Positions 18,800-23,492 of a stretch of DNA of 33,768 nucleotides are shown piece after piece (positions within the stretch are counted from its first letter, which is position 1; each line of letters opens with the position of its first letter). The stretch is from a virus, in UHGV virus genome UHGV-0181805. One strand, given 5' to 3'. Under the pieces are notes generated by a model. It worked only from the letters and a program-made list of their open reading frames with translations, searched no databases and was not told the DNA's origin. The position numbers were made by a program, and so were the translations under genes.

Positions 18800-19540
18800 T
18801 TATTTCGTAGGGAAAGATGTGATCACATCAACGATGGGCTGGATTGAAAATCCAATACCAATTCCGGAGTTAGCATTCAGCGACATCATGTCCGAAACAA
18901 TCTGTAGCGATCTACCAAACATGTCCGCCATTTGCCCGAAATTAACACCCATGATCTCAACACTTCCATGCAGACTTGCTGAAGAAAGATATTGTCGCAG
19001 TTGGGCTATTTCTTGGCTGAAAGCATCAGCCTGATCGCCCATTATATATCTACGCTGGGTGACGATACCTACTAACTCTCCCGAATCTCGATCAATAATA
19101 GGTCCTCCTGAGTTCCCCCCATTAACCATTCCATCAAGCGTAAATCGGCCATGCTCCATCGGTGCTGAAATAATTGCCTCACTTGTTAGTAACAGAGGTA
19201 TCCCATGCGGGTATCCTGCAAAAATTACTTTTCTGCCCCTGGATGGAGCAAACCCAGCAGATGGTTGAAGGACTGTTCTTCCGCCAGGAAGGGGGGATTG
19301 CAATTGCATGATAGCAAAGTCGTTACTACCATCAACATGCAAAATTTTAGCGTCGATACTCTCATTTGCTTCAGTTTGAAGAATGACGTCATTGATTTGA
19401 CACTCGGTTTGTAAGTCACAACAGGTGGCCACAACATGCAAGTTAGTTACAACTAGGTTTTCTCGCATGAAACTGAACCCGCTACCACGAGACTTACCTG
19501 CAATGACCTGAAATGTTGCGTTGGCTAAGTTTTGATGCAT
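18800..19540 (-). CDS. Trypsin-like (S1 / HtrA-type Trypsin_2) serine protease, cytoplasmic, no PDZ domain
   Basis: 246 aa; catalytic-triad motifs TNLHVV (His), NDFAIMQL (Asp), GNSGGP (Ser) in canonical order; no signal peptide; about 90-aa C-terminal extension. Confidence 0.8.
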   Translation of the reverse strand: MHQNLANATFQVIAGKSRGSGFSFMRENLVVTNLHVVATCCDLQTECQINDVILQTEANESIDAKILHVDGSNDFAIMQLQSPLPGGRTVLQPSAGFAPSRGRKVIFAGYPHGIPLLLTSEAIISAPMEHGRFTLDGMVNGGNSGGPIIDRDSGELVGIVTQRRYIMGDQADAFSQEIAQLRQYLSSASLHGSVEIMGVNFGQMADMFGRSLQIVSDMMSLNANSGIGIGFSIQPIVDVITSFPTK

Positions 19541-20246: not shown

Positions 20247-20810
20247 TTAAATGATTTGCCAGTCTTCTGCTAGAACATCAGTCTGACTAGCCAGCCACGG
20301 TACTAATTTATCGTCCGCTGTCTTCATGCAAATGCATGGCAGCGTCACAAGGCCATTAACTCCGTCCAGGTCACACTCAAACCCCCAAGCATTCTGCTGG
20401 ATAATGAACAGATACATCCCCTTACCATTCCAGCCAGCACGGGCAACTTTATTCCCCAACTTGAGCGCTTCAATGGCAAGGCCGAAACTTAGCCCTGATA
20501 CCGGACGATAAGCCTTTTCGAATACTTCTTTTGGACTCCAGCTAACGTAGCCATCAAAGCGATCGGTGTTAGGTTTTCCGCCATCAAGATATTCAACCAG
20601 ATAGCCTTCATCCTCGCCGTTTTCTCCGGCAGGAAGCTGCCAGCCACGAAAATCGTTATATGCCTGTCTCGTCATCGGAAAGGCGTTAATCAGTTTTACG
20701 CCAATATGCTGGGTCATAAAATTACCTATAGAGTTGGGAATAAAAAGCCCCGCATCGCGAGGCTCATTAAATGGACTTTGTGATTTGCAAAACGTGTTTA
20801 TTTCAGGCAC
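20247..20810 (-). CDS. Two-domain phage protein with DUF2829-like C-terminal domain (possible Tad2-like anti-defence); true start may be Met32
   Basis: C-terminal ...[32 protein letters not shown]... fits the ALK.GKKV.R.GWNGKGM motif I associate with DUF2829; directly downstream of Rz. Confidence 0.55.
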
Positions 20811-21268
20811 TGCTCTTTGATGTATTCCTGCAGATAGCCAACCTGCTTCGTCACTGTGACGATTCGCTCTCTGAGGGTGAAATAATCCCGTTCAGCGGAG
20901 TCAGTAAGTCGGGGGCCGGTAACATCGCCCAGGCCGCCGGTGCTGGTCGTTCCGTTCGCGGGACAGTTTGCGTTGAGCTGCAGCCGCTTACGGCCAGCAA
21001 TGACATCGCTATGCAGACGCTCAATGGTTTCTTTCGCATCAGCCAGTTCTCCGGTGTATTTGGCATCCAGTGCAGCGACATCACGCTGGCGGGTCTGCAT
21101 GTCTTTAATGGTGGCGGTCGCCAGGAGGAGTTTCTCAGTGGCCTTATCGCGCTGGTCTCTGTAAGTGATGGCGTTGTCGCGGTAGTGGTTCACGAAGAAA
21201 GCCAGTGCGCCGATTAACGCCAGCACCAGCAACTGCAGCCAGTAACGCTTAACCAGTGCGCTAATCAT
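20798..21268 (-). CDS. Rz: Spanin inner-membrane subunit Rz
   Basis: N-terminal TM helix, then ...[15 protein letters not shown]...[22 protein letters not shown]...RDYFTLRER... matching recalled lambda Rz. Confidence 0.85.
20851..21039 (-). CDS. Rz1: Spanin outer-membrane lipoprotein Rz1, embedded in Rz in another frame
   Basis: 62 aa from internal Met: [20 protein letters not shown] with lipobox, Pro-rich mature part; fully nested within Rz. Confidence 0.7.
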
Positions 21269-21714
21269 GACAGGAACAGAGCTCGCTCTGCCTTGCGGCG
21301 ATTCGTGAGCCCCGGCATCACCTTTCCGCCTGATTTATTCCAGCGCAGAAATTCATCTGCCGCGCCTTTTATATCGCCAGCATTCAGCTTTTTCAGCAGT
21401 GTAGATGTGGAAAGAGCACGCGACCCAACGTTGTAAGCGAACGACACCAGTGCGTCGAACTGGCCTTGTGTCAGCTTCACCCTGACAACTTTCAGCACGT
21501 CATTCTCATAACCAACAAGCCCTGTTTTCAGAAGCCTGTCAGCGGTTTGCTGGTCGATAGTCATACCGCGCTTTACTGGCTTTCCGTCAACCGGATGGGT
21601 CCAGCCATAGCCGATGGTCCACGGCGCATCTCCCGTTCCGGGGTCTGGGTAAGCAGTCAGCCGACAACCTTCAAATTTTTTTATCAGAGCAATTCCGTCA
21701 GGACTGGTTTGCAT
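21265..21714 (-). CDS. Endolysin, T4/P22 gp19-type lysozyme (GH24); start placed at MQTSPDG
   Basis: ...[16 protein letters not shown]...GYG...[13 protein letters not shown]...[11 protein letters not shown] resembles P22 gp19; GGGAG upstream of chosen ATG. Confidence 0.85.
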
Positions 21715-22021
21715 CGTCAACTCCCGCCTTTTTTGCTGCAAGTTTTTTAATAAGATTGCCGATCGAATCGGTGCCGATGTATCCAATAAAGACGCTGGCT
21801 ATGTAGGCGAGGTTGCTGCTCAGGCCGATAAAGTCCAGAAGGTCACGAACGAACCAGGCAATCATCGCGCACATCAGCGCATCAATTAGCGTTTTTGTTA
21901 CCGCGCCGCCGTTATAGCGACCACGCAGATACGCCATGATAAAAGCCAGCATTGCACCAATACCCTGCTCCTTGGCGGCAAGTAGCGCAGCGATGAAATC
22001 TTGTTTGTATGGCATTTTCAT
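21698..22021 (-). CDS. S: Holin, lambda S-type class I with MKM dual-start motif
   Basis: 107 aa from [40 protein letters not shown]...; near-identical in pattern to recalled lambda S107/S105; GGAGGTGA upstream. Confidence 0.85.
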
Positions 22022-22130
22022 AGGCCTCACCTCCGATTTTTCGGATGGCGCTGTGTGTGTATGAAAAGGATCAGGCTTCACTGGCTGGATTTTCAACAAA
22101 GCACGTAGTGATTGATTCCCGTGAGCCTGA

Positions 22131-22154
22131 AATAAAAAACCCGCTCAAGGCGGG
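22131..22154 (-). terminator. Intrinsic terminator between tRNA genes and holin (tR'-like)
   Basis: Minus-strand CCCGCcttgaGCGGG followed by TTTTTTATTTC. Confidence 0.6.
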
Positions 22155-22210
22155 AATGTTAGGGTGTGGCAATGTCAGCTCTGCGGCTGAAGATACCCTG
22201 GCTGGGTTTT

Positions 22211-22286
22211 TGGTGCCGGTTAACGGATTTGAACCGCTACCTATTCACTTACAAGGCGACCGCTCTACCATTGGAGCTAAACCAGC
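22211..22286 (-). tRNA. tRNA-Thr (anticodon UGU)
   Basis: Hand-folded 76 nt: acceptor GCTGGTT/AACCGGC, D arm GCTC..GAGC with G18G19, anticodon loop CUUGUAA, T arm AGCGG-TTCAAAT-CCGTT, encoded CCA; one G.A mismatch in anticodon stem. Confidence 0.65.
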
Positions 22287-22291
22287 ATGTT

Positions 22292-22366
22292 TGGCGGGAC
22301 AGCGTGGACTCGAACCACGATAAGAAGGTTAACAGCCTTCCGTAATGACCTTTATACGACTGACCC
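22292..22366 (-). tRNA. tRNA-Asn (anticodon GUU)
   Basis: Hand-folded 75 nt: perfect anticodon stem GAAGG/CCTTC with loop CUGUUAA, T arm CGTGG-TTCGAGT-CCACG, encoded CCA; one T-T mismatch in acceptor stem and a weak D stem. Confidence 0.55.
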
Positions 22367-22399
22367 AAATAAAAAAAGCCACCGTTGCAACTTAAGAGT

Positions 22400-22452
22400 C
22401 ACTAACGGCAGCTTACCCTCTAATTATGGCTAAATGGCTAATTGCATGTCAA
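22400..22452 (-). promoter_or_regulatory. Candidate late promoter pR'-like just downstream of Q
   Basis: Minus-strand TTGACA (22447..22452) - 18 nt - CATAAT (22423..22428), immediately after Q stop; inferred by analogy to lambda pR'. Confidence 0.35.
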
Positions 22453-22948
22453 GGTTTTTAACAGCAACATGCTTAACTTTCTCAACACGTTTACGCATTT
22501 TGAAAGCATTTTGCATTGGTTGGTACAAAACAAATAATGACGCTTTCAGGATGTCGTCAATTTCATTTCTACAGGTTGCCAGTGAAGGTTTTCTCCATCC
22601 CTCGCCACCACGTCCACACATCTTGCGTGGCTTTGCAGTCGCGTGATAGTAGGATGCAATTGCTCGCTTAGATGAACCATGAGCGTAGTAGCTGAGGAGG
22701 ATGCCAAAGGCTTTCTTGTCAATGTACATGACGGAATCGACGACCTGAGAAATCAACATTCCATCGTCATCATTACACATTGGCCTTGTAATAACTCTTC
22801 CCGGCTCTACGCTCTCCATGAACTTCGCTATTACGCTGCTCATGCGCTTTTCCAGACGACCTGAATAAACCCATGCGCCCCATAGTTCAAGCCATCCATT
22901 CAGCCAATCGTGCTGCTCTTTGGTGAGGTTTAGTTCTCTTATGCTCAT
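22430..22948 (-). CDS. Q: Late-gene antiterminator Q (Phage_antitermQ-like)
   Basis: ...LELWGAWVYSG.....RPMCNDDDGMLI....D.....LLSYYAHG pattern resembles recalled QuuD/phage-82-type Q proteins; position directly upstream of lysis region. Confidence 0.7.
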   Translation of the reverse strand: MSIRELNLTKEQHDWLNGWLELWGAWVYSGRLEKRMSSVIAKFMESVEPGRVITRPMCNDDDGMLISQVVDSVMYIDKKAFGILLSYYAHGSSKRAIASYYHATAKPRKMCGRGGEGWRKPSLATCRNEIDDILKASLFVLYQPMQNAFKMRKRVEKVKHVAVKNLDMQLAI

Positions 22949-23133
22949 CGTCTTCCCCTCTTGCCCTGTTTGACCATCAGGACGCCGTTAACTATTACGT
23001 GACGCTCGCCTTTGCTGTCTCGGTTGTACTTGAGCACTGTTCCTCTTGCGCAGGAAAGCATCCTCGCCACTTCGGTCTGATTGCCTCGTGTCTGGATAAG
23101 AAGCTCTGGTATCGTTTGAATTGTGGCGTTCAT
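22945..23133 (-). CDS. ninH: NinH-like protein
   Basis: ...GNQTEVARMLSCARGTVLKY......H.IVNGVLMV resembles recalled lambda NinH. Confidence 0.6.
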   Translation of the reverse strand: MNATIQTIPELLIQTRGNQTEVARMLSCARGTVLKYNRDSKGERHVIVNGVLMVKQGKRGRR

Positions 23134-23492
23134 ACGTTCTCCAGTTCGGTGATTTTTATTCCAAGCCGTCCGCCTGGTACTTTCACGCCACGAATTACGC
23201 GAATGTCATCGAATTGCTCGTCGTCTTCCGCAAATCCGGCGTGGATAAGGGAGTCGAGTAAACCTTTCAGGATGTTGTCGAGGTCGCGGCGGCGGGAGTC
23301 TGGAACGTCTGCGATGACTTTGATGCGGAGTCGTGATTTGGTGAAAATGTCTAACTTAAGTTGGCGGATGATTTGCTGAACGTCTTTTCGGTATTTCTGG
23401 CCTTTATCGCTGATGTAGTATTGGCTTCCCCGTCTTCGCCAGTAGGTATTCACCGACGGCGGGTATGGAAGCACAAACTGATATTCGTTCAT
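23130..23492 (-). CDS. rusA: Holliday-junction resolvase RusA
   Basis: 120 aa; ...LPYPPSVNTYWR....ADVPDSRRRDLDNILKGLLDSLIHAGF..DD.Q......GGRL.I.ITE matches RusA motifs. Confidence 0.85.
   Translation of the reverse strand: MNEYQFVLPYPPSVNTYWRRRGSQYYISDKGQKYRKDVQQIIRQLKLDIFTKSRLRIKVIADVPDSRRRDLDNILKGLLDSLIHAGFAEDDEQFDDIRVIRGVKVPGGRLGIKITELENV

Follow-up and report, generated by a model that had tools for sequence, protein, structure and literature searches.

Genes for tRNA-Asn and tRNA-Thr beyond the first terminator of a phage 21-type late-operon leader in a P22-like E. coli phage or prophage

In phage lambda, the constitutive late promoter pR' gives rise to a short terminated transcript, the 6S RNA, that ends at tR', and Q is loaded at a sigma-dependent pause. 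The locus described here shares these elements with lambda, and in both only a leader lies between the promoter and tR'. Phage 21 is a closer relative. Its record (AJ237660) carries a 50-nt 'aRNA' feature with a promoter annotated there too, and this annotation, together with Shi et al. 2019, was the basis of our late-region comparison. 21tR' works as a terminator in vitro, where 21Q lifts read-through about 2-fold, or about 10-fold with GreB, and the phage 21 Q-binding element consists of two copies of TGAGCA with essential C:G pairs at -21 and -13 (PMC6606751). The phage 21 genome paper counted two tRNA genes (PMC9119081). [quoted passage not shown]

The place between tR' and the lysis genes is a standard lambdoid slot for tRNAs and morons, occupied in phage 21, Sf6, BTP1, L, JLK-2012, 2851 and Mulock, and it is thus not the unusual regulatory slot for which it was taken in the original prediction on this DNA. 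The tRNAs found in it are Asn and Leu in phage L, Asn, Thr and Gly in JLK-2012, Asn, Phe, Thr and Arg in Klebsiella phage Mulock, and Ile, Arg and Arg, after the same tR' hairpin, in the Stx2c phage 2851. The Sf6 record gives the order pR', qut, tR', tRNA-Asn, tRNA-Thr, with a similarity to phage 21 noted for every one of them, and the phage L record has a terminator annotated at the tR' position. The Stx phages share with the present locus a constitutive pR' ended at tR', with tRNAs placed after tR' and ahead of the late cargo and lysis genes. Their tRNAs, however, are for Ile and Arg (ileZ, argN, argO), lie ~200-300 nt after tR' and have a separate promoter, mapped between tR' and the tRNAs (PMC7547250), whereas the tRNAs studied here abut tR'; the Stx phages studied make a terminated RNA of 258 nt (StxS) that binds Hfq and is regulatory, compared with about 50 nt predicted here.

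Phage tRNAs of these specificities have also been studied in connection with tRNA nucleases. In P2-lambda interference, P2 Old kills by cleaving the tRNA-ThrU of the host, and the cuts fall at paired CNG motifs of its anticodon stem (PMC12445682, 2025). Cells are rescued by phage tRNA-Thr(UGU) genes; phage 21's own tRNA-Thr protects against P2-OLD and rescues cells expressing Old plus Gam, and resistance requires that the anticodon stem be shorter and the CNG motif changed as well, in phage 21 by C28U/G42A (PMC12445682). For PARIS AriB, Thr(UGU) and Asn(GUU) are secondary targets, and the Lys, Thr and Asn tRNAs of T5 jointly rescue (PMC12409363).

The window, that is, the whole 33.8-kb stretch of DNA that was analysed, belongs to a P22-like E. 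coli phage or prophage, since its virion genes are P22-like, the nearest being those of E. coli phages JEP4, E212, CUS-3 and Sf101. The tRNA genes stand between Q and the holin, which is the first protein gene of the late operon, and genes of the NinH, RusA and YbcO types lie upstream in the same region. The features of the late-operon leader and of the genes flanking it are as follows.

22430..22948, minus strand: Q antiterminator of the phage 21 type, 172 aa (Pfam PF06530, 1.6e-25)
22423..22452, minus strand: late promoter pR', with -35 TTGACA at 22452..22447, an 18-bp spacer and -10 CATAAT at 22428..22423 (consensus scan)
22428..22441, minus strand: predicted Q-binding element, a direct repeat of TTAGCC (22441..22436 and 22433..22428) that overlaps the Q stop codon (sequence inspection)
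22367..22416, minus strand: predicted terminated leader RNA of about 50 nt, starting at G22416 and matching the phage 21 'aRNA'
22415..22410 (+2 to +7), minus strand: -10-like pause element TAAGCT, invariant in six phages
22414..22376, minus strand: tR' hairpin of 17 bp (folding)
22377..22367, minus strand: U7AUUU of tR', the U-run overlapping the last two stem pairs
22292..22366, minus strand: tRNA-Asn, anticodon GUU, G73 discriminator, CCA encoded (ARAGORN, gtt; Rfam RF00005, 55.3 bits)
22211..22286, minus strand: tRNA-Thr, anticodon UGU, G1-C72, C2-G71, CCA encoded (ARAGORN, tgt; Rfam RF00005, 55.4 bits)
22130..22154, minus strand: second intrinsic terminator-like hairpin, CCCGC-CTTGA-GCGGG followed by T6ATTT (TTTTTTATTT; pattern scan)
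22022..22129, minus strand: holin leader (5' UTR), common to HK225, mEp237 and Gifsy-2
21698..22021, minus strand: holin, class I, S-like, starting M-K-M (Pfam PF05106, 8.5e-30)
21265..21717: endolysin, after the holin (PF00959)

The two tRNA genes, for which scores below threshold had been feared when they were folded by hand, were both called by ARAGORN on the late strand and at exactly the coordinates proposed, and they are the only two in the whole window. Their Rfam scores are nearly twice the RF00005 gathering score of 29 (E-values of ~8e-11 for both), and both form a cloverleaf with a 7-nt anticodon loop above this curated threshold. Two non-standard pairs are found in tRNA-Asn (U4xU69 and U13xU22) and a single one in tRNA-Thr (G27xA43 in the anticodon stem), in addition to a U28-A42 pair. 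The E. coli identity elements are G34, U35, U36 and G73 for Asn and G1-C72, C2-G71, G35 and U36 for Thr. All of these are present in the window tRNAs, with the 3' CCA encoded in both. Both tRNA genes are genuine, and their identity elements predict that the products would be chargeable. The tRNA-Asn is invariant across six phages, being 100% identical to that of phage 21, Sf6, BTP1, L and JLK-2012, whereas tRNA-Thr matches the phage 21 tRNA-Thr (sequence taken from AJ237660) at 71/76 positions and E. coli thrU at 56/76. The five differences from phage 21 are A26G, C40U, A70G and single changes in the variable loop and the T-loop, and structure is kept, C40U giving G-U and A70G giving U-G. Against the Mulock tRNAs there are compensatory changes at 6-67, 7-66 and 28-42 of tRNA-Asn and at 6-67 of tRNA-Thr, which indicates that the cloverleaf is under constraint.

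Two other interpretations of this interval were rejected. The tRNAs are not remnants of an attachment site, as they are complete, lie in the late operon leader and occupy the same place in phage 21 and Sf6; and the plus-strand ORFs 22045..22323, 22166..22345 and 22287..22433 were regarded as spurious, since they run antisense to the tRNA genes. Just 3' of tRNA-Thr, a small hairpin, UCAGC-CGCAGA-GCUGA, is found at 22175..22190 (minus strand). In Mulock (L004 ~1215..1235) the matching place after the four tRNAs holds UCGGU-CAUC-ACCGA, and the two form a compensatory set; this hairpin may be a processing or 3'-end element.

Upstream of the tRNA genes, the window Q aligns over residues 1-162 with the phage 21 Q of the RNA polymerase structures (9e-91 for 6JNX, 2e-90 for 6P18), covering all 162 residues of Q21. 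Its C-terminal half diverges from that of phage 21, with residue 95 being R here and H in 21. The candidate promoter TTGACA-18-CATAAT proposed upstream of the tRNAs is indeed present (22452..22423, minus strand) and fits 11/12 consensus positions; it is identical in Sf6, where it is annotated as "P R', nearly identical to phage 21 late promoter", and it represents the late promoter, pR', of a cassette of the Q21 type. A consensus scan of 21600..23200 gave no other promoter-like site on the minus strand. The TTAGCC repeats lie between -35 and -10, 8 bp apart, and their fifth base, C at 22437 and at 22429, is at -21 and -13 from G22416. The promoter spacer and these repeats are unlike those of phage 21, which has two copies of TGAGCA where the window has two of TTAGCC. 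Thus, a Q homologue, two predicted subsites, a -10-like pause element and an intrinsic terminator directly downstream, which together define a Q21-type cassette, are all found in the window. As a side observation, relative to phage 21 the predicted Q-binding repeats and the DNA-contacting half of Q (residues ~95-160) have both changed, but the pause element and the terminator are identical, which points to a specificity switch inside one cassette.

The terminator of this cassette, tR', folds at -20.2 kcal/mol with a z-score of -5.42 (0/200 shuffles as stable), and its sequence matches phage 21 tR' at every position. Base for base, the 50-nt 'aRNA' of the phage 21 record equals window positions 22416..22367. 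From TAAGCT on, the leader of the window agrees fully with those of phage 21 and BTP1, and those of Sf6, L and JLK-2012 differ only in lacking one T of the T-run. Phage 21 is moreover 100% identical from TAAGCT through tR' and tRNA-Asn, with the same order of elements and the same zero spacing between the U-tract, which ends at 22367 in the window, and tRNA-Asn, which starts at 22366. This hairpin (22414..22367) was overlooked in the original prediction and is far stronger than the terminator named there. Our consensus terminator scan also missed it, probably because only a simple stem with a 3-8-nt loop was accepted, and it was folding that found it. Rfam also gave a match to CbSR9 at the 3' end of Q, but with 19.7 bits (E = 0.61) it falls below the gathering score of 279 and was taken to be fortuitous. 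A minor point concerns the phage 21 record AJ237660 (L006 ~880..895), which reads CATTGAGCAAGTAGCAAC where JLK-2012 reads CATTGAGCAAATGAGCAAC; the difference is probably a single-base error of the kind that, according to the 2022 genome paper, early phage 21 sequences contain.

The second hairpin, downstream of the tRNAs, is of a different kind. It has 5 GC pairs followed by T6, and its fold energy of -8.4 kcal/mol (z -0.9) is like that of shuffles. HK225, Mulock, Gifsy-2 and L also have a hairpin and T-run at this point before the holin, with stem sequences that are all different, and in HK225 and Gifsy-2 there are no tRNAs. Of the strong tR'-like terminator that had been placed at 22131..22154, the hairpin and the T-run are there, but the site (22154..22130) is not tR'; it is a putative second terminator that goes with the holin leader, also in phages without tRNAs, and it would probably act as a fail-safe that halts unmodified polymerase ahead of the lysis genes. 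Homology to phage 21 and Sf6 ends at the CCA of tRNA-Thr; beyond it the DNA is unrelated to phage 21 and, up to the holin start, is a leader like that of HK225, mEp237, Gifsy-2 and Mulock, with 84-93% identity to the first three over 22145..22024, that is, up to the Shine-Dalgarno sequence. Sf6 and BTP1 carry another mosaic piece between tRNA-Thr and the holin, with a GC-rich hairpin that lacks a clean T-run, in contrast to the HK225/Mulock-type terminator and leader of the window.

The module as such is already known and partly characterised, being annotated in phage 21, Sf6, BTP1 and others. The 3' end of Q through the tRNAs matches 92 phage records at 90-99% identity, many of them annotated with tRNA-Asn and tRNA-Thr, and identity is 96-97% for Sf6, BTP1 and other P22-like phages across the 3' end of Q, pR', tR' and the two tRNAs. 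The module is also present in 830/5426 complete E. coli genomes (~15%), and one E. coli genome is 100% identical over 256 bp, where RefSeq annotates tRNA-Thr, tRNA-Asn and Q. A different state is seen in Stx2c phages with a Q21-type Q (2851, L011 701..773; 1717 and others), which share the tR' hairpin and the first ~24 nt of tRNA-Asn and then diverge, with Ile, Arg and Arg tRNAs following ahead of stx2A; divergence at this point places a recombination junction inside tRNA-Asn.

We consider it likely that this P22-like E. coli prophage has a late-operon leader module of the phage 21 type, from which Q-dependent late tRNAs with a twofold role would be made. The constitutive pR' would start transcription at about G22416, and without Q the polymerase would stop after ~50 nt at tR'. 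Q would bind the two TTAGCC copies and load onto polymerase paused at the -10-like TAAGCT, after which the Q-modified polymerase would cross tR', tRNA-Asn(GUU), tRNA-Thr(UGU) and the putative second terminator (22154..22130), with read-through continuing into the holin, endolysin, spanin and virion genes. Host tRNA-processing enzymes would then excise the tRNAs from the late transcript. As tRNA-Asn starts right after the U-tract, leaving neither room nor signal, no promoter of its own is expected, and by sequence none was found between tR' and the tRNAs (zero spacing; scan of 21600..23200). Q-modified polymerase should thus read the tRNAs during lytic growth, as had been proposed, given that they lie beyond the tR' of a Q21-type cassette. 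With tR' upstream of the tRNAs, constitutive synthesis in the lysogen is not predicted except by leakage through the terminator; such a leak is possible, and the effect of Q on 21tR' in vitro is only ~2-fold without GreB. A literature search for RNA evidence on the tRNAs of the BTP1 prophage returned nothing relevant.

The main competing account is the one from which this analysis started, in which the tRNAs sit inside a constitutive pR'-tR' transcript like the lambda 6S RNA that ends at 22154..22130, so that they are always made and aid decoding in the lysogen. The near-consensus pR' agrees with it, such promoters being constitutive (PMC7547250), as does the terminator-like site that does come after the tRNAs, at which any RNAs leaked through tR' would stop. 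Between promoter and tRNAs, however, stands the 17-bp hairpin with U7 (-20.2 kcal/mol), the equivalent of the phage 21 tR' that ends a 50-nt RNA; the same upstream hairpin is annotated as a terminator in Sf6 and L, and the downstream site is found also in phages without tRNAs. As the tRNAs lie beyond tR', the analogy with lambda fails as it was drawn: the short transcript ends one base before tRNA-Asn begins, and tRNAs made constitutively in the lysogen are not what this arrangement predicts. We regard this account as improbable. Another possibility is that the tRNAs serve mainly as punctuation for RNA processing, where cuts by RNase P and RNase E would free the hairpin leader and set the 5' end of the lysis mRNA, with decoding being incidental. 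The tRNAs do separate the leader from the first protein gene, and in the window as well as in Mulock the tRNA cluster is followed by a small hairpin whose stem shows compensatory changes; yet many lambdoid phages have the same holin leader without tRNAs (HK225, Gifsy-2), the identity elements, encoded CCA and compensatory stem changes are those of working tRNAs, and phage 21 tRNA-Thr decodes ACA in vivo (PMC12445682), which makes this a very improbable primary role. That the tRNAs are non-functional relics, carried along by recombination, might be suggested by the mosaic junctions flanking the module, with homology to 21 and Sf6 ending at the tRNA-Thr CCA, and by the Stx2c phages that retain only ~24 nt of tRNA-Asn. 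Against Rfam scores at nearly twice the gathering threshold, a tRNA-Asn invariant in six phages, structure-preserving changes in tRNA-Thr and a phage 21 orthologue of tRNA-Thr whose function has been tested, we give this explanation hardly any weight.

What the tRNAs are for is a separate question. In the late-expression model favoured here they would have two jobs, the first being to keep ACA and AAY codons readable during late protein synthesis, and the second to substitute for host tRNA-ThrU, and possibly tRNA-Asn, when these are cut by Toprim tRNA nucleases of competing elements such as P2 Old and PARIS AriB. As to the first, ACA accounts for 26.6% of the Thr codons of late genes (15.6 per 1000 codons) compared to 10.2% (5.4 per 1000) in 42 annotated E. 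coli K-12 genes, a difference of about 3-fold (odds ratio 3.2, Fisher p = 8e-12), whereas Asn codons are only 1.24-fold enriched. The codon supplementation proposed earlier is thus borne out for ACA and only weakly so for Asn, and a role in codon supply is plausible for the former and weak for the latter. The coat gene uses ACA in 1/34 Thr codons and, as coat is the most abundant late protein, codon supply would not be critical for it.

As to the second job, the window tRNA-Thr has G27xA43 unpaired and a U28-A42 pair, with UCG at 28-30 and UGA at 40-42, and hence no CNG, where thrU has CUG and CAG. It shares the anticodon with the tRNA-Thr(UGU) of phage 21 and with the library coliphage tRNAs examined against P2-OLD, and it has the 27-43 mismatch and C28U/G42A; the sequence features that go with P2-OLD resistance (UGU, 27-43 unpaired, CNG altered) are therefore all present. 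The resistance features of phage 21 are kept in the window allele, and on this basis it is predicted to be resistant. The tRNA-Asn is also without both CNG motifs, having AAG and CUU where host asnT has CGG and CCG, while the Mulock tRNA-Asn keeps both. P2-OLD cuts tRNA-Asn(GUU) too, more slowly than ThrU. The anticodon arm of the window tRNA-Asn suggests a possible counter-defence role for this tRNA. For tRNA-Thr, such a role has direct experimental support in its phage 21 orthologue (PMC12445682). The comparison with T5 is more distant: the anticodons UGU and GUU are shared with the T5 tRNAs that act against PARIS AriB, but the window has no tRNA-Lys, so full rescue from the studied PARIS system would not be expected, and T5 has a large early tRNA cluster where the tRNAs of the window are predicted to be late and Q-dependent. 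Old is triggered by a RecBCD inhibitor, and the pL operon is cut short in the window, following an N-like gene and a few small ORFs. In JLK-2012 (L008 1029..1104), the tRNA-Thr(UGU) is thrU-like (67/76) and has mismatches at 27-43 and 28-42 that leave a 3-bp anticodon stem, with CAU at 40-42; it seems to have arrived by a separate route at an anticodon arm that looks Old-resistant.

Each of the two jobs could in principle be the whole story. In a purely codon-based explanation, the tRNAs would only raise the level of ACA and AAY decoders in late synthesis and have no anti-nuclease role. It draws on the ~3-fold enrichment of ACA over K-12 genes, on the fact that ACA is read solely by tRNA-Thr(UGU), for which the host has a single gene, thrU, and on the phage L authors having proposed codon supply for tRNA-Asn (PMC8022706). 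But the early genes, whose translation precedes synthesis of the tRNAs, are just as rich in ACA (31.6% of Thr codons), the codon is avoided in the coat gene and the enrichment for Asn is small. Furthermore, the anticodon arms differ from those of the host at exactly the positions that decide cleavage by OLD, and protection against P2-OLD is conferred by the phage 21 orthologue but little or not at all by host tRNA-Thr genes, thrU among them (PMC12445682). We thus find codon supply alone rather unlikely. The opposite extreme, which we can offer only tentatively and as a minority view, is that the Asn/Thr pair is a dedicated cassette against Toprim nucleases and not a codon supplement, in which tR', the tRNAs and a second terminator are so arranged that a trickle of transcription from the strong constitutive pR' past tR' would pre-load the lysogen with resistant tRNAs while the holin stays unreached. 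This is suggested by both tRNAs lacking the paired CNG motifs at which P2-Old-type enzymes cut the host versions and by their anticodons matching the two secondary targets of AriB; if true, a prophage at induction would be protected in advance against P2 or P4 elements resident in the same cell. The twofold role in late, Q-dependent expression remains our preferred reading.

The significance of these results is mainly that of a correction: annotators of lambdoid prophages should place tR' before the tRNAs and should not assume expression in the lysogen. As about 15% of the complete E. coli genomes carry the module, exclusion of the P2 Old type may be widely evaded in nature through its tRNA-Thr. 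Whether tRNA-Asn acts likewise against another nuclease is an incremental question on a known system.

Three further ORFs of the window deserve mention. Directly after the Rz/Rz1 spanin genes, the ORF at 20247..20810 (minus strand) carries at its C terminus a domain like Thoeris anti-defense 2 (PF11195, E = 1.4e-26; phrog_872), making it a candidate counter-defence gene in the late operon and near the tRNAs. Between the lysis cassette and the terminase genes, the ORF at 18800..19540 (minus strand) encodes a trypsin-like serine peptidase (PF13365, 3.2e-20), which is odd cargo for a P22-like late operon. Finally, beyond the tailspike gene, the ORF at 1012..2022 (plus strand) belongs to the acyltransferase-3 family (PF01757, 1.3e-29) and is likely an O-antigen acetylase of the serotype-converting kind.
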